Assembly: GCA_034722055.1 (NCBI GenBank) | Contig: JAYENL010000130.1 | Span: 18,021 to 82,020, forward strand | DNA: 64,000 nt | Direction of reading: 5' to 3' | From: Armatimonadota bacterium | GTDB taxonomy: Bacteria > Armatimonadota > Zipacnadia > Zipacnadales > UBA5352 | In this document: positions 6,293-51,859 of the stretch, one piece after another | Layout of the letters: each line of letters opens with the position of its first letter | How positions within the stretch are numbered: the first letter of the stretch is position 1 | Made by a program: the position numbers and the translations under genes | The notes under the pieces: model-generated | What the model was told of the DNA's origin: nothing | Database searches by the model: none | The model's input: the letters and a program-made list of their open reading frames with translations, nothing else

Positions 6293-7588
6293 TCAGCGCT
6301 CATCCGACAGCCCGTGGATGCTCGCCCCCCGCTGGTGCAGCCGCAGGCGAAGCTGGTCCGCGTCCACGGCGCGCACGTCACCCGTCGCCAGCGCCATCTG
6401 CGCCGCGCAGCCGGCCGCCTCGCCGATGGCCATTACGATGGGCATCACGCGCAGCGAGCTGTGCGCCCCGTGGTCGCACGAGACGCAGCGGGCGGCGATG
6501 AGCAGGTTCTCGAAGCCACGCGGCGTCAGGCAGCGGTACGGGATGTCGTAGGCCTCGCCCGGCGGCAGCCGCTTGATGACCGTCCCGCTGCCCGCCGGGT
6601 TGTGGATGTCCACGCAGTACGAGCCGCGGGCGATGCCGTCATCGAAGGTGCGCGCCGCCAGCACGTCCTCGGTGGTCAGCACGTAGTCGCCCATCACCCG
6701 CCGGCTCTCGCGCACGCCGATCTGCGGCGCGATCTCCTGCAGCCAGGCCTCCTCGAAGCCCGACACCTCCCGGGTGAGGAAGCGCACCATCTCGCGCACC
6801 TGCCGCCGCGCCTGCAGCTCCGCGTGGGTCATGTCCTCGGCGTTGGTGGGATCATGCTTCACTATCCGTGTAGTGTTGAGATGCACCTCGTTTTCGTGCG
6901 TCGTGAAGAAAAAAAGGACGTTCTCGCGCGGGTTGTCGATCTCCCCGCGCTCCCTGGCGGCGTCGTAGAGCTCAGTGATGTCGCCGCGCGAGGGCACGCG
7001 GTCGAGGTCCACATTCACCATGCGGAAGCACAGCGTCATGGGCTGGCAGAGGCCGTCCTCCTCCCGGCCGATCTCGACCTCCGCCCCGGCCCGGGCCGCC
7101 AGATCGCCGTCGCCCGTGGCGTCGATGAACACCTCGCCCTTGACCTGCTGCAGCCCGGACTTGCTCAGCGTGGCGATCCTGCTTACTCGACCGTCGCGGG
7201 TGTCTACGTGCGCCAGCATGGTGTGCAGACGCAGCCGCACGTCCGCCTCCTCGCACAGATCATCGGCCACCAACTTGAGCAGCTCGTCGTCGAAGGCGCT
7301 GCCCTGCCGGGGGCCCGCCCAGCCGCCGTAGTCGTCGAGCCGCTCGATGATGCGCTCGAACAGCCCCCGGATGATGGGCTTGCCGCCCGCGTGCCAGGTC
7401 ATGAAGGGGTTGACCAGCCCTGCTGTGGCCATCCCGCCCAGGAAGCCGTAGCGCTCGATCAGCAGCGTGTCAGCGCCCTCCTCAGCGGCGGCCACCGCCG
7501 CGCACAATCCACCCGGCCCACCGCCCACCACCACGACCTCGGCCTCCGCTGCCACCTCAAGGGCGTCGAAGCTCACGGCGTCGCTCAT
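6293..7588 (-). CDS. FAD-dependent oxidoreductase
   Basis: VVVVGGGPGG Rossmann motif, FIDATGDGDLA, GVRESRR, YDIPYRCL. Confidence 0.85.
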   Translation of the reverse strand: MSDAVSFDALEVAAEAEVVVVGGGPGGLCAAVAAAEEGADTLLIERYGFLGGMATAGLVNPFMTWHAGGKPIIRGLFERIIERLDDYGGWAGPRQGSAFDDELLKLVADDLCEEADVRLRLHTMLAHVDTRDGRVSRIATLSKSGLQQVKGEVFIDATGDGDLAARAGAEVEIGREEDGLCQPMTLCFRMVNVDLDRVPSRGDITELYDAARERGEIDNPRENVLFFFTTHENEVHLNTTRIVKHDPTNAEDMTHAELQARRQVREMVRFLTREVSGFEEAWLQEIAPQIGVRESRRVMGDYVLTTEDVLAARTFDDGIARGSYCVDIHNPAGSGTVIKRLPPGEAYDIPYRCLTPRGFENLLIAARCVSCDHGAHSSLRVMPIVMAIGEAAGCAAQMALATGDVRAVDADQLRLRLHQRGASIHGLSDER

Positions 7589-7935
7589 GTCTGGGGCTCC
7601 TCGCATTCGAGATCAACGTGAATGCGTATTCCGCGCTCTGCCGCCTCGCGTGCCAGCGAGTTCCACTCCTGCATCTCCTCGAAGTGCTGAGGCGTGCAGG
7701 GCAGCAGCTCGAGCTGCAGGTCCAGCTTCCACTCCCGCTGCAGCTCCGGGAGCAGCTTGCCCAGCGGGCGCCCCTCGAAGCTCTCGGAGAGCAGCACCAG
7801 GTTCAGGTCCGAGTGCGGGCGCTCGTCCCCGCGCGCCCGTGAGCCGAAGAAGATGGCGTCCTCCACACCCACCCGGCGCAGGAACCGCCGAATCTCCTCG
7901 ATCAGCTCTTCGCGTTGTACTGTGTCTCGATCCAC
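7585..7935 (-). CDS. minimal nucleotidyltransferase (MNT), second catalytic Asp replaced by Asn
   Basis: FFGSRARGDERPHSDLNLVLL (canonical GSxARG..SDxD). Confidence 0.8.
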   Translation of the reverse strand: MDRDTVQREELIEEIRRFLRRVGVEDAIFFGSRARGDERPHSDLNLVLLSESFEGRPLGKLLPELQREWKLDLQLELLPCTPQHFEEMQEWNSLAREAAERGIRIHVDLECEEPQT

Positions 7936-8300
7936 TCGAAGGCCTCCTGAGCCATCGCCACGGCCTCGCGCGCATCCTCGGGCTCGAAGCGCTCCGAGGG
8001 CGGCCCGCCGGCGGCGTCCACGTAGCGGGTGGACATGTAGAAGGGGTTCAGCCTCTTAATGATTGCCCACATGTCGTCGGGTATCCTGCCGAACACGTCG
8101 TGAACCATCGCCTGCAGGGAGTGCTCGTGGGGCATGGGGCGGTCCTTGAGGATGGGGTAGCCGCACTTGAGGAGCTTCTCAACGGCCTGCCGGGCGTGGA
8201 AGATGGCGTGGCTGGGGATGTCGTGCCGGGAGAGCAGCCGGGCCGCCTCCAGGTCGATCCGCGCATCGGCGATCCACGACCGCTCCCGCTCGGAGAGCAT
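7902..8300 (-). CDS. HEPN domain protein (COG2250-like)
   Basis: W..DA..DL..A..L..AIFHARQAVEKLLK..H.L..Y..TRY pattern; overlaps downstream MNT. Confidence 0.8.
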   Translation of the reverse strand: MLSERERSWIADARIDLEAARLLSRHDIPSHAIFHARQAVEKLLKCGYPILKDRPMPHEHSLQAMVHDVFGRIPDDMWAIIKRLNPFYMSTRYVDAAGGPPSERFEPEDAREAVAMAQEAFEWIETQYNAKS

Positions 8301-9435: not shown

Positions 9436-10299
9436 TCAGCCGTCATCGTCAGAGGTGTCCTCGTCGCCCGGCTCGTCATCGAGACCGGCGTCCTCAGGGA
9501 CGTCGCCCGCAGTTGGCAGCCCGCTCTCAGGCAGCTGCTCGCCCACCCATTCGAGGACGCTCTCCATCGCCACGAGCGCGCTCTCCGCGTCAAGCTCGTT
9601 GTAGTATGTCGTCGGCGACGGAATGACCTCCGTTGGGTACCGGGTCAGGATGTAGTACGCCTCAAGCTCCCTGAGTGGGCCCTTGACCTCGCCTGGGACA
9701 TCGCCGAACGCGGTCTCCGCCAGCTCGTGCAGCGCGTGGGTTCGAGGAGGTTCCTCAGCGCGCAGCTCGACACAGGCCGCCTTCAGGGCGGCCTCCACTG
9801 CCTGTCGCGCATGATAGATTGCCTGGCTGAAGACGTTGGCTTCACTCAGTAGCCGTGCTACCCGCCGGTTCGTGCCAGCTTCCGTCAGCCAGTTCTTTGT
9901 CTCTGGCCGCATTCTCTCACCTCCCGGCTCGGGCGGTGGCTGGTGCTCCACAATGGCGCCGTCACCGTCACCACGCAACGTGATGTGGATACCGGTCCTG
10001 GCCGCGGCTCGTTCGATGCCAAGGCCCCTTTTCGCCCGCTCGAACTCCTCGGGCGTGTAGGCGAGGACTTCCAGGAAGGGTAGCTCCGGGTCCCACTCGG
10101 AATGCAGAGGCGCGAGGCGCCGGTGAGGAGGCGTATCCGCGAACCGCGGCGAGATCACCATCAGGTCCACGTCGCTGCTCTTGATGTGATCCCCACGCGC
10201 TCGCGACCCGTAGAGGATGGCCTCAGTGACGCCGACGCGCCGCATGAACTCCTGCACGACCTCGATCAGCTCGTCTCGAGTAAGCGTCCGGACAGGCAC
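9436..10299 (-). CDS. MNT-HEPN in-frame fusion protein
   Basis: N-half LYGSRARGD..SDVDL (MNT); C-half from MRPETKNW with AIYHARQAVEAALKA..THAL..YILTRYP (HEPN); acidic tail. Confidence 0.8.
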   Translation of the reverse strand: MPVRTLTRDELIEVVQEFMRRVGVTEAILYGSRARGDHIKSSDVDLMVISPRFADTPPHRRLAPLHSEWDPELPFLEVLAYTPEEFERAKRGLGIERAAARTGIHITLRGDGDGAIVEHQPPPEPGGERMRPETKNWLTEAGTNRRVARLLSEANVFSQAIYHARQAVEAALKAACVELRAEEPPRTHALHELAETAFGDVPGEVKGPLRELEAYYILTRYPTEVIPSPTTYYNELDAESALVAMESVLEWVGEQLPESGLPTAGDVPEDAGLDDEPGDEDTSDDDG

Positions 10300-10342
10300 G
10301 CGAGCACCTCCCGCGCATCCTCGATGGCTCGCTGAATCACTG

Positions 10343-11776
10343 TCACTGCAGCTTCTCCCGCATGATCTCGTTGACCATCTGCGGGTTCGCCTGGCCCTGC
10401 GTGGCCTTCATGACCTGGCCGATGAGGAAGCCGATGGCCTTGTCCTTGCCGCTGCGGAACTGCTCCGCCGGCCCGGGGTTGTCGGCGATCACCTGCTCGA
10501 TGATCCCCTCCAGCTCGCCGGCGTCGGAGATCTGCTCCAGCCCCTCCTCCTCCACGATCTCCCGCGGGCCCCTGCCGGTCTCGAACATCGTCGCCAGCAC
10601 GTCCTTGGCGATCTTCCCGGAGATGACGTCCTCCTCTATCAGCGTCAGCAGCTCTGCCAGGCCCTGGGAGGAGATGGGACTCTCGGTGATGCTTACGCCG
10701 GCCTCGTTGAGCAGGCTCATGACATCGCCCATCAGCCAGTTGCTGACGGTCTTGGCCGCTCCCTGGAAGTGCTCGCAGGTATCCTCGAAGAAGTCGGCCA
10801 GCTCCCGGCTCTCGGTGAGCACCTCAGCGTCATACTCAGGCAGACCATACTGCTCGCACAGCCGCCTGCAGCGCTCGGCGGGCAACTCCGGGCAGCTCTC
10901 GATGATCTCCTGCACCCACTCCGGATCCGGCTCCAGCGGCACCAGGTCCGGCTCCGGGAAGTACATGTAGTCGTCGGAGGTCTCCTTGCGCCGCATCAGC
11001 GTCGTCACGCCCTTATCCTCATCCCAGCGCCGCGTCTGCTGGAACAGCTCCTCCTCCCGGCCCTCCCGCACCGCACGCCGCTGGCGCTCGATCTCGTACT
11101 TCACGGCCTCGTAGACCGAGCGGATGGAGTTGAGGTTCTTGATCTCCACCTTCGGCGTGGCCTCACCGGTCTGGGGATCACGCAGGTTGACGGTGGGCTC
11201 GGCGCGCATGGCGCCCTCCTCCATGTTCGCGTTCGAGACCCCGAGGCAGCGCAGGATCAGCCGAAGCTGCGTGAGGTACTCCCGGCACTGCTCGGCGGTG
11301 GTGAAATCCGGCTCCGTCACCACCTCCATCAGCGGGATGCCGCAGCGGTTGTACTCCACCAGCGACGAGCCGCTGGGCAGGTGGATGTTCTTGCCGGTGT
11401 CCTCCTCCAGATGCGCCCGGCGGATGCCGATGCGCACCTCCTCCCCGTCCACGGTCAGGTCGATGTAGCCGTCATGCGTCAGCGGCTCATCATACTGCGA
11501 GATCTGGAAATTCTTGGGCAGGTCGGGGTAGAAGTAGTTCTTGCGCGCGAAGCGGCAGCGCTCCGCCACCTGGCAGTGCAGCGCCACCCCGGTGCGGATG
11601 GTGTACTCCACCGCAGTGCGGTTCGGCACCGGCAGCGAGCCGGGCAGCCCCAGGCAGGTAGGGCACACGTTGGAGTTCGGCTCAGCCCCGAACTCCGTCG
11701 AGCACTGGCAGAACATCTTCGACTTGGTGTCGAGCTGAGCGTGCACCTCAAGGCCGATCATGGGCTCAAGCGCCAT
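10343..11776 (-). CDS. gatB: Asp-tRNA(Asn)/Glu-tRNA(Gln) amidotransferase subunit B
   Basis: IGLEVHAQL..KMFC..RKNYFYPDLPKNFQISQ..HLEEDTGK..YMYFPEPDL..GQVMKATQGQANP. Confidence 0.97.
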   Translation of the reverse strand: MALEPMIGLEVHAQLDTKSKMFCQCSTEFGAEPNSNVCPTCLGLPGSLPVPNRTAVEYTIRTGVALHCQVAERCRFARKNYFYPDLPKNFQISQYDEPLTHDGYIDLTVDGEEVRIGIRRAHLEEDTGKNIHLPSGSSLVEYNRCGIPLMEVVTEPDFTTAEQCREYLTQLRLILRCLGVSNANMEEGAMRAEPTVNLRDPQTGEATPKVEIKNLNSIRSVYEAVKYEIERQRRAVREGREEELFQQTRRWDEDKGVTTLMRRKETSDDYMYFPEPDLVPLEPDPEWVQEIIESCPELPAERCRRLCEQYGLPEYDAEVLTESRELADFFEDTCEHFQGAAKTVSNWLMGDVMSLLNEAGVSITESPISSQGLAELLTLIEEDVISGKIAKDVLATMFETGRGPREIVEEEGLEQISDAGELEGIIEQVIADNPGPAEQFRSGKDKAIGFLIGQVMKATQGQANPQMVNEIMREKLQ

Positions 11777-40762: not shown

Positions 40763-40903
40763 GCTGGCACTCCGAGCCGCTTCCGTGATCTCGCATTCGA
40801 TTCTTCGGCCCACGCCAGCCGAACACCTGCATGCGGGGAGGACGCCGCGGCCGGCGACGCGAAGATGAACCTGCAGACAGCCACTCGAGGAGGTGCTCGG
40901 AGG

Positions 40904-42295
40904 ATGCTGCTCAGAGCCGCCGTCATGTTAGTCATGATCGCCGTCTGCCTGGCCGCCCACGCCCAGGCGCCGAAGCTGCTGCTGCGCGCCGCCTTCGACG
41001 GCTCGACCGATCTCGAGCCCGGCGGCGAGGGCGAGCTGGTGGCCGCCGAGTTCGCCGATGGACGCGACGGCCAGGCCATCCGCGCCACCGCCGCGGACCA
41101 GCCCGCCGCGCGCATCCCACTGGACGTCGCCAGCGCAGACGAGGGCACGCTGATGTTCTGGTTCCGCTGCGACGAGCCCAACCCGCCCGACCGCTCGGAG
41201 CGGGTTCACTGGACGCCGGTCACCACCGGCGGCGAGCCCGGGCCGCGCATCGACGTCCACCAGATGTACCACCAGGCCCAGATCCAGGCCCGCAATCCCT
41301 GGGGGGAGGACCACTCCGGCGGCGCCCGGGCCGTCTACAGCCACCTCATCCCCGGCAAGTGGTACCACCTCGCCTACACCTGGCGGAAGGCCGGCAACGA
41401 CGTCTGCTACTGGCTCTTCGGCGAGGCTCAGAGCGACACTCTCGGCAAGTGGAATGAGCTGGAACACACCGACGCCCAGTGGGCGGACACGCTCCAGGTC
41501 GGCTCCGCGCTCGGCAGCATCGACGATCTGCGCATCTACGATCGCGCCATGACCGGCGAGGAAATCCAGGCCGCCGGCGAGTACCGCGACGGGGAGGCCA
41601 TGTACGATGAGGGCAAGGTCTTCTTCGACACCGTTCTCGACATCGACGCCCTGAAGGGCGAGCTGATCGCGGAGGACACTTTCGACGAGCCCTGGCAGGG
41701 AAACTGGACGCTGGAGGGACCCGGCATCCTGACGCAGGAGGACGGCCGGCTGCGCCTCCAGGAGCCCGAGCCCGGCACCGAGGGCGCCAACCACATCGTG
41801 CTGTGGAACGACACGCCGACGCCCAAGGACTTCATCGCGCAGTGGGACTTCACGCCCAATGACGTCGCCGGCCTGTGCATCGTGTTCTTCTCCGCCAAGG
41901 GACTGGGCGGGGAGAGGATCTTCGACCCCGGACTGGAGGAGCGCGATGGGACCTTCAGCCAGTATCACTCCGGGGATATCAACTGCTACCACATCTCCTA
42001 CTTCCGCAACACCTGCTCGCGCTCACCCAACACCGCCCTGCGCAAGAACAAGGGCTTCTGGCGCTGCTCCGCGGGGTATGATTACATTCCGCTGGAGACG
42101 GGCGTGACCAGCACCATCACGCTGGTCAAGCGCGGCGCGCACATCCAGTTCGCCATCAACGATCGCGTCTCCATCGACTGGGTGGACGACGGGGTCAGCC
42201 GCGGCCCGGTCTGGGGCGGAGGGCACATCGGCCTCCGCCAGATGATGACCACCGATGGCTGGTACGACAACTTCCGCGTGTGGGCGATCAAGTAG
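40904..42295 (+). CDS. secreted LamG-like plus DUF1961 (YesU-like) protein
   Basis: Signal peptide; KWYHLAYTW..IDDLRIYDRA (LamG); YHSGDINCYHISYFR..LRKNKGF..GGHIGLRQM. Confidence 0.7.
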   Translation: MLLRAAVMLVMIAVCLAAHAQAPKLLLRAAFDGSTDLEPGGEGELVAAEFADGRDGQAIRATAADQPAARIPLDVASADEGTLMFWFRCDEPNPPDRSERVHWTPVTTGGEPGPRIDVHQMYHQAQIQARNPWGEDHSGGARAVYSHLIPGKWYHLAYTWRKAGNDVCYWLFGEAQSDTLGKWNELEHTDAQWADTLQVGSALGSIDDLRIYDRAMTGEEIQAAGEYRDGEAMYDEGKVFFDTVLDIDALKGELIAEDTFDEPWQGNWTLEGPGILTQEDGRLRLQEPEPGTEGANHIVLWNDTPTPKDFIAQWDFTPNDVAGLCIVFFSAKGLGGERIFDPGLEERDGTFSQYHSGDINCYHISYFRNTCSRSPNTALRKNKGFWRCSAGYDYIPLETGVTSTITLVKRGAHIQFAINDRVSIDWVDDGVSRGPVWGGGHIGLRQMMTTDGWYDNFRVWAIK

Positions 42296-42314: not shown

Positions 42315-42632
42315 ATGGACCTCGACGAGGCGCTGCGACAACTGAGGGCGGAGCTCGAGGAGCTCTACGGCGAGCGCCTCAAGGGCCTGTATCTGTTCGG
42401 CTCCCGCGCCCGCGGCGACGCCGAGCCGGACTCGGACGTGGACGTGGCCGTGGTGCTGGACGACTTCGAGTACGAGTCAGACGAGCTCACGCGCATGGCG
42501 CCGGTGCTGAACAGGCTGTCGCTTGAATGTGACCTGGTCTTCGCTGCGGTCCCGATCCGCGCCAGCGAATGGGCAGGTGGCGGCAGCCCCCTGATGCTGA
42601 ATCTCCGTCGCGAGGGAGTGCCGCTGCCATGA
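42315..42632 (+). CDS. minimal nucleotidyltransferase (MNT) 1
   Basis: LYLFGSRARGDAEPDSDVDVAVVL. Confidence 0.9.
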   Translation: MDLDEALRQLRAELEELYGERLKGLYLFGSRARGDAEPDSDVDVAVVLDDFEYESDELTRMAPVLNRLSLECDLVFAAVPIRASEWAGGGSPLMLNLRREGVPLP

Positions 42633-43018
42633 CCGAGGAGATGCGCGTACTGCTGGCCGACGCAAGGCGGAATGCGTCGGCCGCACGTGACTTGCTGGAT
42701 CGGGGAGACTCGGACGACATCGCGGCCTCTCGAGCCTACTACGCCATGTTCTACGTCGCTGAGGCCGCCCTGCTCAGCCTCGACCTGTCCTACAGCAAGC
42801 ACCAGGCCGTGGTGTCGGCGTTCGGCAGGGAGTTCGCCAAGGGCGGGATACTCCCCCGGGAGCTTCACGGCCACCTTCGGGAAGCGTTTGGGCTGCGCCA
42901 GACGGCCGACTACGCCACGGGGGCGAGCGTGTCCCGCGCTGCTGCGGAGGAAGTCGTTGACCGCGCCGAGCAGTTCATCGACGCCATCGAGGATTACCTG
43001 CGGCAGCAGACAGAGTAG
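42629..43018 (+). CDS. HEPN domain protein 1 (UPF0332/COG1895-like)
   Basis: SRAYYAMFY..SKHQAVVSAFGREF..LRQTADY; ATGA overlap with MNT1. Confidence 0.88.
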   Translation: MTEEMRVLLADARRNASAARDLLDRGDSDDIAASRAYYAMFYVAEAALLSLDLSYSKHQAVVSAFGREFAKGGILPRELHGHLREAFGLRQTADYATGASVSRAAAEEVVDRAEQFIDAIEDYLRQQTE

Positions 43019-43210
43019 CTCGGAACCTCGCGCTCCAGGCCGGTTGGTGAGGTAGATGGACCTTCACGAGGCGCTGCGACAACTGAGGGCGGAGCTTGAG
43101 GAGCTCTACGGTGAGCGCCTCAAGGGTCTGTATCTGTTCGGCTCCCGCGCCCGCGGCGACGCCGAGCCGGACTCGGACGTGGACGTGGCCGTGGTGCTGG
43201 ACGACTTCGA
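42965..43210 (+). repeat. 246-bp constant junction block, copy A
   Basis: About 16 mismatches against 43703-43948 by manual count; partial copies at 42315-42469 and 44441-44477. Confidence 0.9.
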
Positions 43211-43373
43211 CTCGGCATTCGAGGAGATCGACCGGATGGCTGAGGTCGGGACCCGGATCTCGCTGGCGGCGGATCTCGCTATCACCAAGATACCTCTCAC
43301 CGAGGCCCAGTGGCGAGATAAGCAGACGGCGTTCCTGCGCAACGCCCGCCGGGAGGCGGTGAGCATCGAGTGA
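43056..43373 (+). CDS. minimal nucleotidyltransferase (MNT) 2
   Basis: First 51 aa nearly identical to MNT1, C-half divergent. Confidence 0.9.
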   Translation: MDLHEALRQLRAELEELYGERLKGLYLFGSRARGDAEPDSDVDVAVVLDDFDSAFEEIDRMAEVGTRISLAADLAITKIPLTEAQWRDKQTAFLRNARREAVSIE

Positions 43374-43756
43374 ATGAAGAGCAGGCGGCAATGGTGGGAA
43401 GGGCACGCAGCGCACTCAGGCTGGCGCGTGTCGCCCTGCGCGAGGATGAGGCGAATGCCGCCGCATCGCAGGCGTACTACGCCATGTTCCACGCGGCCAA
43501 TGCTGCCCTGGCATCACTGGGTCTTGGCTTCTCGAAGCACTCGGCGGTCCAGAGCGCCTTCGGTCGCGAATTCGCCAAGACTGGCCGCCTGCCCCGGCAA
43601 CTGCATCGCTGGCTGATCTCCGCCTTCGAGAAGCGGGTCATAGCAAACTACGACTACACGTCGCATGTCGAGGACGAAGAGGCGAGCGAAGTCGTCGAGC
43701 AGGCCGAGCAGTTCATCGCCGCCATCGAGGATTACCTGCGGGAGCAGACAGAGTAG
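43370..43756 (+). CDS. HEPN domain protein 2
   Basis: SQAYYAMFHA..SKHSAVQSAFGREF..KRVIANY; GTGA overlap. Confidence 0.88.
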   Translation: MNEEQAAMVGRARSALRLARVALREDEANAAASQAYYAMFHAANAALASLGLGFSKHSAVQSAFGREFAKTGRLPRQLHRWLISAFEKRVIANYDYTSHVEDEEASEVVEQAEQFIAAIEDYLREQTE

Positions 43757-43948
43757 CTCGGACCCTCGTGCTCCAGGCCGGTCGGTGAGGTACATGGACC
43801 TTGACGAGGCGCTGCGACAACTGAGGGCGGAGCTCGAGGAGCTCTACGGCGAACGCCTCAGAGGCCTGTATCTGTTCGGCTCCCGCGCACGCGGCGACGC
43901 CGAGCCGGACTCGGACGTGGACGTGGCGGTTGTGCTGGACGACTTCGA
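43703..43948 (+). repeat. 246-bp constant junction block, copy B
   Basis: Direct repeat of 42965-43210. Confidence 0.9.
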
Positions 43949-44111
43949 GTCGGTCTACACGGAGATCAGGCGCATGTCGGAGGTCGGCGCCCGGACATCT
44001 CTCGATCTCGACCTGCACGTTAGCCTCATCCCGGTGCGTGAGGCCGACTGGCGTGAAGGGACGAGTATATTCCTCCGCAACGTCGCTCGGGAAGGAGTCT
44101 CGGTCCATTGA
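43794..44111 (+). CDS. minimal nucleotidyltransferase (MNT) 3
   Basis: Same N-half as MNT1/2 (one K->R against MNT1), divergent C-half. Confidence 0.9.
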   Translation: MDLDEALRQLRAELEELYGERLRGLYLFGSRARGDAEPDSDVDVAVVLDDFESVYTEIRRMSEVGARTSLDLDLHVSLIPVREADWREGTSIFLRNVAREGVSVH

Positions 44112-44488
44112 ACCCCGAGGTGCGCGGCAAGCTTGATCGCGCTGGATCATCATTGGAGGCGGCGCGCGTCCTGGCGGCTGAGGATCTGGCCAACCAGGCG
44201 GCTGCCGAGGCGTATTACGCGATGTTCCACGCCGCGACCGCGGCCCTGGCCGCACGTGACCAAAGCTACTCCAAGCACTCAGCGGTGATAAGCGCCTTCG
44301 GCCGCGAGTTCGCGAAGACCGGCGAACTGCCGGCGGAACTGCACCGGCGACTCCGGGAGGCCTTTGAGACCCGCCTCTCGGCGACGTATGACTACACCCA
44401 CCAAGTGACCGTTGCCGAGGCCGTCGCTCTCTGCGACGAGGCCGAGCAGTTCATCGCCGCCATCGAGCACTACCTGCAGCGGCGATAG
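44108..44488 (+). CDS. HEPN domain protein 3
   Basis: EAYYAMFHA..SKHSAVISAFGREF..TRLSATY; TTGA overlap. Confidence 0.88.
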   Translation: MNPEVRGKLDRAGSSLEAARVLAAEDLANQAAAEAYYAMFHAATAALAARDQSYSKHSAVISAFGREFAKTGELPAELHRRLREAFETRLSATYDYTHQVTVAEAVALCDEAEQFIAAIEHYLQRR

Positions 44489-44491
44489 CCA

Positions 44492-44932
44492 TCATGACTG
44501 CGCCTGGGAGGGAACGTCCTCTTCGCGCTTGAGCCCAGGGACGGAAGAGAGCTTGCGGTCGAAGGAGTAGAGCCGCCCCTCGCACTCCTCCAGCGCTGCC
44601 GCACAGGCGCAGGCGTCTCCGAAGTGCTTCACCGTGTCCCTGAAGAGCCGCAAGGCGCGCAAATACCGCGGCGTATCGGTCATCAAGAAGCCATCGGTCT
44701 GGAGAAGGGGAATGAGCCCGTCGCTGATTTCCTCGTTGGGCAGTTCGTAATAGGAGGAGGGCACGTAGACTACCTCAGCAAGCGTCACAGGGTCGCAGAC
44801 TACTGCAGCCTTCCCCCGCTGCGCGCTGCGGAGAATCGTGGCCGCCTTGGCTGCCAGGGCTTCCTCGTCTCGCAGCAGGAAGCGCAGAATCACGTTGGCG
44901 TCGATTACCCACAGTTCCCGCGTGTTACTCAT
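44492..44932 (-). CDS. PIN domain (VapC-like) toxin
   Basis: VIDANVILRFL..TLAEVVY..FGDA..LYSFDRKL acidic PIN residues. Confidence 0.85.
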   Translation of the reverse strand: MSNTRELWVIDANVILRFLLRDEEALAAKAATILRSAQRGKAAVVCDPVTLAEVVYVPSSYYELPNEEISDGLIPLLQTDGFLMTDTPRYLRALRLFRDTVKHFGDACACAAALEECEGRLYSFDRKLSSVPGLKREEDVPSQAQS

Positions 44933-45176
44933 CCGCCACCTGCTTGGCTACAGCTTCCTGCGCCTCACGCCGGACGGTGTCCCACTCGGCATCCCTGCCC
45001 TGCGCGTACTCGTGGAAGATCCCGAACAGCTCGTCAACCGATCTGAGAGGCCACAGCACTGCCTCATCCTCGCGGGCCTCCAGTGCCAACTCGTCCCCGG
45101 GCTGTATACCCAGCTTCCGACGAACATCGGCAGGTATCGTGATGCGGCCCTGTTCCGAGACCCTGACCTTTGTCAT
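44925..45176 (-). CDS. AbrB/MazE/SpoVT-fold antitoxin (VapB-like)
   Basis: MTKVRVSEQGRITIPADVRRKLGIQPGDEL; overlaps the PIN gene; AGGAGG RBS. Confidence 0.88.
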   Translation of the reverse strand: MTKVRVSEQGRITIPADVRRKLGIQPGDELALEAREDEAVLWPLRSVDELFGIFHEYAQGRDAEWDTVRREAQEAVAKQVADE

Positions 45177-45360
45177 GTCGGCGTACCTCCTGCTCTCCAT
45201 CTTACCCATGTTCCCAGGACCGCACAAGACGCCGCATGGGCCCCGAAACTCGGAGGCTCCAAGACCGCTCCGACCAGGACGAGCTTTCAGCCCGCCAGGC
45301 AGCGAACGCCCGAGAGGTCCGGAGGGTGATTCCTCACGCCGGATCGAGGCGGGAGCCGAC

Positions 45361-51549: not shown

Positions 51550-51651
51550 TACCCTTCGGAGCGGCGATCCTCGCAGGCAAGCATTGAAGTAGGTCCGGCG
51601 CCCTCCGGCCCACCCCGCTTTGGCACTGCGCGATAGCCGCAGGTCGTGCGG

Positions 51652-51859
51652 CACGGCGGCGCGCTCCGCAAACGGCAGGGCGGGCTGGGCAGCCCGCCCC
51701 TCCGTACGGCATTCATGCCCCGCGCCGGGGTCGTTGTCATTTCCGTACGGAGCGGCGGCGCGCCTACGCCGCCGGCCGTTGCCGTCCGTCGTTTCCGTAC
51801 GGAGCGGCGGCGCGCTCGGCAAACGGCAGGGCGGGCTGGGCAGCCCGCCCCTCCCTACG
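51652..51859. repeat. REP-like palindrome cluster (two copies of the 17067 hairpin plus duplicated TTTCCGTACGGAGCGGCGGCGCGC)
   Basis: CAAACGGCAGGGCGGGCTGGGCAGCCCGCCCCTCC(G/C)TAC at about 51669-51707 and 51820-51858. Confidence 0.75.

Follow-up and report, generated by a model that had tools for sequence, protein, structure and literature searches.

A tandem array of MNT–HEPN gene pairs

We analyzed a 64,000-nucleotide (nt) stretch of the genome of an Armatimonadota bacterium (GCA_034722055.1, contig JAYENL010000130.1, positions 18,021-82,020 of the forward strand), hereafter the window, in which three gene pairs, each encoding a minimal nucleotidyltransferase (MNT) followed by a HEPN protein, lie in tandem at 42315-44488, repeating every 741 and 738 nt. 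Within every pair the start of the HEPN gene overlaps the MNT stop by 4 nt, and all six products exceed the curated Pfam cut-offs, the three MNTs for NTP_transf_2 (PF01909) and the three HEPNs for HEPN (PF05168). A first-pass annotation of this DNA had described the locus as constant blocks alternating with variable cassettes, and had suggested a system that diversifies toxin-antitoxin pairs by recombination.

The whole array is on the plus strand. MNT1 (42315-42632), whose AlphaFold model (pLDDT 95.5) has a fold matching the MNT antitoxins 8xeo and 7bxo, begins with constant block 0 (42315-42469), an N-half made of helix α1, strand β1, the catalytic motif and strand β2. It continues into a variable cassette of type A (42470-42964), which comprises the α2-β3-α3-α4 part of MNT1 and the body of HEPN1 (42629-43018; canonical RxxxDY motif, RQTADY, and His58). 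Constant block 1 (42965-43215) then takes in the HEPN1 tail, a 37-nt spacer with a ribosome-binding site and the N-half of MNT2 (43056-43373; related in sequence to chain E of PDB 9XBD, E 2e-9); behind it, the type B cassette (43216-43702) leads into HEPN2 (43370-43756), a relative of the HEPN of PDB 9XBD/9XBC (E 1e-19) whose motif, RVIANYDY, has Asn in place of the conserved Asp. Constant block 2 (43703-43953) repeats the arrangement with the HEPN2 tail, a spacer and the N-half of MNT3 (43794-44111), and is followed by the type C cassette (43954-44440) and HEPN3 (44108-44488; RLSATYDY, conserved Asp to Thr).

By their domains and motifs the pairs are class II HEPN/MNT modules (PF05168) and not, as the first-pass annotation had assumed, of the class I HepT/MntA type. 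MNT1-3 have GS-x10-DxD and HEPN1-3 the conserved Tyr; the HEPNs carry neither RX4H nor RX4HXY and belong to neither PF01934 nor PF08780, and the MNTs reach 43-45 bits with the MntA model NF047752, below its cut-off of 60. The Asp of RxxxDY, kept in 36/37 homologues and in type A, gives way to another residue in every unit of types B, C and D, HEPN2 and HEPN3 included. In the portion of PMC7641770 used here, class II pairs are described as lacking RX4HXY and keeping Tyr, with no biochemistry, with toxicity and AMPylation unstudied and without validation as toxin-antitoxin systems; the portion of PMC3710099 used here reports an alternative His in the HEPN family, which HEPN1 keeps as His58, and HEPNs that can be toxic without the motif. 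A solved class II complex exists (9XBD), together with a Tyr-to-Phe variant (9XBC), and a literature search that left subscription journals mostly outside its reach found no paper describing 9XBD. In PADLOC, MNT1 matches candidate PDC-S09, HEPN1 and HEPN2 match PDC-M05B weakly and HEPN3 matches nothing; these matches were not used as evidence of defence.

Constant blocks are homogenized and cassettes are not

Between 42965-43210 and 43703-43948, 230 of 246 nt are identical (16 differences, 93.5%), and x-drop extension carries the match between blocks 1 and 2 to 234/251 nt (42965-43215 and 43703-43953). Over the first 155 nt of the MNT genes, MNT1 and MNT2 differ at 5 sites (150/155 nt identical), MNT1 and MNT3 at 7 (152/159 nt over a slightly longer alignment) and MNT2 and MNT3 at 10, the N-halves being 93-97% identical; the 37-nt non-coding spacers agree at 33 positions. 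Right after codon 51, at the end of VVLDDF, identity falls to 49-58%: the cassettes are only 50-60% alike and the HEPNs mutually 52-60% identical. The earlier account of period, block identity, MNT1/MNT2 agreement, collapse behind VVLDDF and divergent HEPN bodies thus matches both the open reading frames (ORFs) and the alignments, except that the MNT C-halves, said to be one-third identical, are so in two comparisons (17 and 20 of 54 residues), while MNT2 and MNT3 share 27 of 54 and are half identical.

Synonymous divergence, which the first-pass annotation had proposed to compare across the units, is not uniform. Among codons for identical residues, synonymous differences number 4/49, 5/49 and 7/48 in the N-halves and 0/12, 0/10 and 0/11 in the HEPN tails, as against 44/70, 42/73 and 47/87 in the MNT C-half plus HEPN body (N-half versus cassette, Fisher p 5e-10, 6e-8 and 7e-6). 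The tails have 10-12 of 13 residues in common, and that of HEPN3, without synonymous differences, is also partly homogenized. Because synonymous sites are homogenized in the N-halves but not in the cassettes, purifying selection does not account for the blocks. Judged by mean pairwise identity per segment among 37 single-copy homologues, the family is best conserved in β1-β2 (0.56 versus 0.31-0.37); helix α1 has a mean identity of 0.32, yet is 95-100% identical among MNT1-3, and the HEPN tail one of 0.26. The synonymous test, together with the tree incongruence described below, supports the view that the constant blocks are products of recombination.

Cassettes differ between relatives at the same locus

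Upstream of the array lies a DUF1961/laminin-G gene (40901-42295, plus strand; PF09224), probably co-transcribed with it, which provides a conserved anchor found in 12/17 family relatives. Outside the repeat, an AbrB/MazE-type antitoxin and PIN toxin pair (44492-45182, minus strand; PF04014, PF01850) converges on the array end; it holds the same position in G007 and G010 and has been lost in G001 along with the remainder of a unit (G000 denotes the present genome, G001 one of the same genus, other G numbers further relatives, L numbers metagenome and other loci, and C numbers contigs). A promoter scan returned 0 sigma-70 sites and 1 terminator-like site, which is chance level, and no RNA data set containing the locus was found.

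Behind DUF1961, G001 has one broken type C unit, whose cassette is 92-93% identical to type C of the array, and a 72-nt MNT stub. G010 has a type A unit, behind which the end of DUF1961 occurs once more where the contig breaks off, and on another contig a type C unit before the PIN pair; between its A and C units the N arm measures 97 nt (97% identical) and the tail arm 125 nt (96%). In G015 a B unit precedes an A unit and the arm is 210 nt long (93%); in G013 type D follows a lone MNT, and the arm is 163 nt long (92%). Type D alone stands in G007, a frameshifted B in G003 and another frameshifted unit in G008; G012 and G016 have stubs, G017 ends within the N-half, and nothing lies behind DUF1961 in G009 and G014. 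The first position is held by A in G000 and G010, B in G015 and G003, C in G001 and in the metagenome locus L174, D in G007 and the lone MNT in G013, so that relatives do vary, across species and genera, in cassette number, order and content, as had been anticipated. An exact-pattern scan of metagenomes gave one locus, and no unit was found at seven loci (L047-L053) picked from weak DNA matches.

The N-halves are 93-99% alike within genomes and cluster by genome or genus, whereas the cassettes cluster by type across genera: type A with G010 and G015 (support 100/100), type C with G010 and L174 (support for the type C group 99/98), and type B with the first unit of G015 and with G003 (90/95), type D having no resolved grouping. 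In approximately unbiased (AU) tests on trees of 14 and 11 rows, for which groups were named after the first trees had been inspected, cassette-type clades are rejected on the N-half tree (p-AU 3e-7, 0.003 and 1e-111) and genome clades on the cassette tree (p-AU < 1e-40). Helix α2 is closest to its own cassette type in 10/12 units; the conserved middle segment of HEPN assigns just 8/12 units to their type and is uninformative on chimeras inside HEPN. These comparisons show old cassettes, of at least four types (A-D), each inherited as one stretch from MNT helix α2 through the HEPN body.

L174 resembles G010 in DUF1961 (93%), N-half (94-98%), tail (91%) and downstream flank (87-88%), and its first cassette is of type C where G010 has type A (46-54% alike); on these alignments the difference is a cassette replacement between conserved arms. 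The L174 cassette is 70-76% identical to the type C of G000 versus 65-67% to that of G010; horizontal transfer was considered as its source and set aside, grouping with the G010 type C not being rejected (p-AU 0.059). Divergence between G000 and G001 is an even 7-10% across DUF1961, N-half, C-half and HEPN, and a comparable 3-7% separates the arms of G000 from one another. Events therefore seem spaced on the scale of species divergence, and cassette turnover looks slow, unlike phase variation.

Similar blocks recur in other arrays

A census of homogenization across the bacterial family and order scored 23 adjacent pairs, with 8 MNTs carrying a D-x-N motif falling outside the same-window scoring. 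In the MNT-to-HEPN order, the N-window is at least 85% identical in 12/18 pairs, corresponding to 10/16 arrays from several MNT subfamilies. Two tandems of other MNT subfamilies in the present genome (G000:C179:16900-18700 and G000:C324:29100-30700) carry blocks of 186-192 nt, 99% identical, which stop immediately after the DxD strand, their N-half blocks lacking any synonymous difference; such blocks include cases of 0/38 and 0/37 codons. G005:C436 holds three units of the C179 kind, and a pair on G000 contig C323 has no block. In the family arrays measured, which represent MNT subfamilies unrelated to each other, right block edges fall at +26 to +39 nt relative to the first Asp and share no motif beyond coding sequence; left edges differ between arrays.

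In the opposite, HEPN-to-MNT order, with the stop of the HEPN gene overlapping the start of the MNT gene behind it, it is the C-terminus of the MNT that forms the block, at 89-99% identity in 5/5 scored pairs; G000:C4:4470-5550 and loci L054, L056, L057 and L060 are examples, with the C-terminal 30 MNT codons as the common block. Helix α2 never exceeds 69% identity in the 23 scored pairs and is homogenized in none of them (0/23).

Same-strand tandems make up 42/106 PF05168 matches in 18 family genomes, 0/85 in 25 outside genomes and 2/97 in 66 other genomes of the phylum, counts that used different E-value limits, the family count being taken from a table. The lone tandem pair from the other phylum genomes also has a 153-nt N block, at 86%. 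Outside the lineage, a second unit was found at 0/76 related loci in the available flanks, about 3 kb being available on both sides for 49 of 80 loci.

Further gene arrangements were noted in passing. On the minus strand of the window, a HEPN-then-MNT pair at ~7550-8300 (G000:C130:25946-26302 and the MNT behind it) has D-x-N replacing DxD; it has close copies in 8 family genomes, often beside a more variable unit or an MNT-HEPN fusion, and appears to be a conserved and possibly domesticated pair. At ~9440-10400, also on the minus strand (G000:C130:27558-28427), lies an in-frame MNT-HEPN fusion; G007, G012 and G014 have similar fusions. Short palindromic repeats (64 nt, 92%) occur at 51645-51859, and intergenic repeats of this kind are present at other places in the genome. 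Two sets of tandem genes (G000:C95:27300-30900 and G000:C57:9990-11300), which we take to be prepilin-like from their GFTLIELLVV start, have 87-99% identical 5′ blocks and different remainders.

A putative recognition helix remains with its HEPN

In the AlphaFold model of MNT1, β2 spans residues 42-48 and α2 residues 54-71, and the break at 51/52 falls in the loop between them. For a Legionella class I complex, the portion of PMC11586414 used here gives α2 and the α2-β3 loop as the elements forming the HEPN interfaces. In both gene orders the homogenized part is the MNT end away from its own HEPN, and α2 stays with the HEPN; for this reason we infer that the cassette is a cognate specificity unit, with α2 as its likely recognition element by analogy with class I.

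Probable evolution of the array by homologous recombination

We consider it probable, with appreciable room for doubt, that this class II MNT-HEPN array evolves by ordinary homologous recombination inside the MNT genes, whose arms add, delete or swap co-adapted units of MNT recognition half plus HEPN. Alignments and trees show repeated within-genome homogenization of the arms, linked inheritance of the cassette from α2 to HEPN, and changes in cassette number, order and type. With a catalytic half that would be interchangeable, any crossover or conversion tract within the common arms would always rebuild an intact MNT, and would never part helix α2 from its own HEPN; events entering α2 would uncouple antitoxin from toxin and be removed by selection. 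Unequal crossover would add or delete cassettes and double crossover would replace one. RecA-type crossover and conversion would suffice, with no need of a dedicated recombinase, given that no recombinase gene lies among 15 neighbouring ORFs, that edges vary and that the prepilin-like tandems also carry 5′ blocks. Each HEPN may, by analogy, be a growth-inhibiting, RNA-acting putative toxin restrained by its cognate MNT through binding and nucleotidylation, the target of which would probably be the Tyr of RxxxDY. Two candidate causes were discarded: loss of mismatch repair, because the genome has a MutS_I match, and a tRNA-linked island, the nearest tRNA being ~16 kb away.

Several observations weigh against this explanation. 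Blocks are absent from 6/18 MNT-to-HEPN pairs, and at 7 further tandem loci the second MNT is divergent, with D-x-N, and shows no block beyond one 77% stretch. Four of the five C-block pairs belong to one orthologous family, and in one genus the C-terminus is 93-98% identical for most between-genome comparisons; the case for C-block homogenization is weakened because C-termini are so alike between genomes as well. Related genomes do not represent independent events. Broken units are frequent (G001, G003 and G008, with stubs in G012 and G016), which fits weak selection, as does the loss of the Asp in HEPN2, HEPN3 and types B, C and D at large. Helix α2 is variable family-wide (0.31), so the boundary could merely mark where homology ended, and the putative toxicity, nucleotidylation and specificity of these class II proteins rest on analogy.

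In an alternative that we find doubtful, although it is the strongest of the rivals, the same recombination would proceed without any specificity code. Conversion would be seeded at the conserved catalytic motif and spread until homology ends, the cassettes staying distinct only through being too diverged to recombine; MNTs would cross-neutralize or HEPNs be largely inert, and the array would be a slowly decaying by-product. The high family-wide conservation of β1-β2, the 5′ blocks of the prepilin-like genes, the many broken units and the missing Asp of types B, C and D are all consistent with it. The blocks of HEPN-to-MNT arrays, however, skip the catalytic motif, cover the C-terminus and again spare α2; right edges keep to the same narrow interval behind the first Asp in unrelated MNT subfamilies; and α2 is nearest to the same cassette type in most units. 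An extension of the favoured explanation strikes us as unlikely: that selection maintains in this lineage a genome-wide stock of exchangeable toxin-antitoxin specificity cassettes, with the catalytic half of the antitoxin as recombination arm. A toxin would then be added, dropped or swapped along with the helix recognizing it, between genera as well, and types B, C and D, lacking the family Asp, would have acquired new RNA targets of use for defence against phages or for the stress response.

Programmed diversification, in which a dedicated recombinase or selected hotspot would shuffle, excise and re-insert cassettes at a high rate and so maintain a variable toxin repertoire within populations, appears decidedly improbable. 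Tandems are concentrated in the lineage, as far as counts made at differing thresholds allow, some blocks lack any synonymous difference, and at site 43742 the letter of block 1 is present in read sets X1 and X2. Against these stand the 15 neighbouring ORFs scanned in 33.7-54.6 kb, none of which encodes a recombinase (the search for a trans-acting one did not extend to the remaining genome), the lack of a tRNA near the array, left edges that differ, right edges with no motif in common apart from coding sequence, and N-halves of G000 that differ from each other about as they do from its congener. No fixed recombination site was found at cassette edges, which vary between arrays; turnover looks to be on the scale of species divergence, and nothing establishes a dedicated system of the kind that the first-pass annotation had thought possible.

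It is very improbable that single-cassette alleles of co-occurring strains were joined in series during assembly, although the assembly has 330 contigs and single-cassette alleles do occur in relatives. We compared the locus with Logan contigs of runs X1-X4, all from one study that possibly includes the source sample; such contigs break at repeats, and depth values were not taken as copy numbers. None of the contig records crosses the whole array, and the order A-B-C lacks independent confirmation; X1, however, contains cassettes A, B and C with 3, 0 and 2 differing letters in the covering records, and both flanks: in its contigs DUF1961 runs on into the start of MNT1, and cassette C into the PIN gene. 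The three arms, moreover, differ from one another at 5-16 sites, and intact tandems exist in other genomes, at the array locus and elsewhere. No joint skipping a unit occurs in the Logan contigs, but these break at repeats, and the near absence of cover at junction 1 (43007-43143) in X2-X4 proves nothing, by the search tool's own caveat. Contigs of X2 and X3 have a one-base deletion in HEPN1 at 42853 (codon 75). Low-depth contigs of X2 match the N arm at 43206 and 42478 and continue into other cassettes, one of them type D-like; they probably stem from relatives present in the sample.

An old triplication in which purifying selection simply preserved the catalytic half is scarcely credible: the catalytic segment is indeed the best-conserved part of the family, but synonymous sites, non-coding spacer, helix α1 and HEPN tail are homogenized too, and N-halves cluster by genome. 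The synonymous test and the AU tests both contradict it.

Comparison with known systems

The array resembles class II HEPN/MNT modules (PDB 9XBD, 9XBC and 2HSB) in both Pfam domains, GS-x10-DxD, the conserved Tyr, the alternative His and the two-gene units; such modules are usually single elsewhere, whereas here they form arrays with homogenized intragenic arms, and types B, C and D replace the RxxxDY Asp. With type VII HepT/MntA systems (class I; Shewanella and Legionella structures 5YEP, 7BXO and 8XEH) it shares the MNT fold, the catalytic motif and an MNT upstream of the HEPN, but the HEPNs are not DUF86/PF08780 and lack RX4HXY, and the MNTs stay under the NF047752 cut-off.

Rhs and CDI (contact-dependent inhibition) systems combine a secreted carrier with an exchangeable toxic tip and orphan toxin-immunity modules. 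No carrier domain of this type was found in the array or in the 15 neighbouring ORFs, and the array does not fit this class. Type VI secretion system (T6SS) effector-immunity arrays of Vibrio reportedly undergo cassette displacement. As in polymorphic toxin exchange (Rhs orphan modules, Neisseria tpsA/tpsC, Vibrio T6SS), homologous recombination at a fixed locus would transfer toxin and protective part together in a single cassette; unlike there, no silent orphan cassettes feed one expressed gene, there is no delivery domain, and each unit has a full MNT. Integrons and other site-specific cassette arrays differ in that no recombinase was found among the ORFs scanned around the array, nor any fixed edge site.

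The mechanism is ordinary recombination, but the architecture is real and recurrent. The arrays amount to a natural series of chimeras: in several MNT subfamilies unrelated to each other, and whichever gene comes first, catalytic halves that are nearly the same are joined to recognition halves that have diverged. The series points to helix α2 as the specificity element and makes partner specificity directly testable. In the portions of PMC7641770 and PMC2701414 used here, class II pairs are described as widespread, their function and partner recognition being open. Clustered MNT and HEPN genes are mentioned in the portions used of PMC2701414 and PMC3710099, without arms or cassette exchange; PMC13000451 and PMC6929052 contribute nothing further, and our search, with subscription journals mostly outside it, found no published account of a homology-arm cassette design in MNT-HEPN modules.

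The closest parallels, as far as the portions of the sources used here describe them, are the esaG, tipC and lpl tandem arrays, in which high-identity blocks among paralogues drive loss, gain and mosaic genes and the lpl unit spans the 3′ part of one gene, the spacer and the 5′ part of the next (PMC9484751), and T6SS arrays with cassette displacement (PMC5361080). The present array has in common with esaG, tipC and lpl the high-identity blocks in diverged paralogues, phylogenetic evidence of recombination, and copy number and content that vary at an orthologous locus, here between species and genera. The genes of those arrays code for immunity or surface proteins with ties to secreted toxins, whereas the MNT-HEPN unit, for which no link to secretion was seen, holds a putative toxin together with the partner half of its antitoxin; homology-block cassette exchange, known for secreted-toxin immunity arrays, would thereby extend to intracellular, putative toxin-antitoxin modules.

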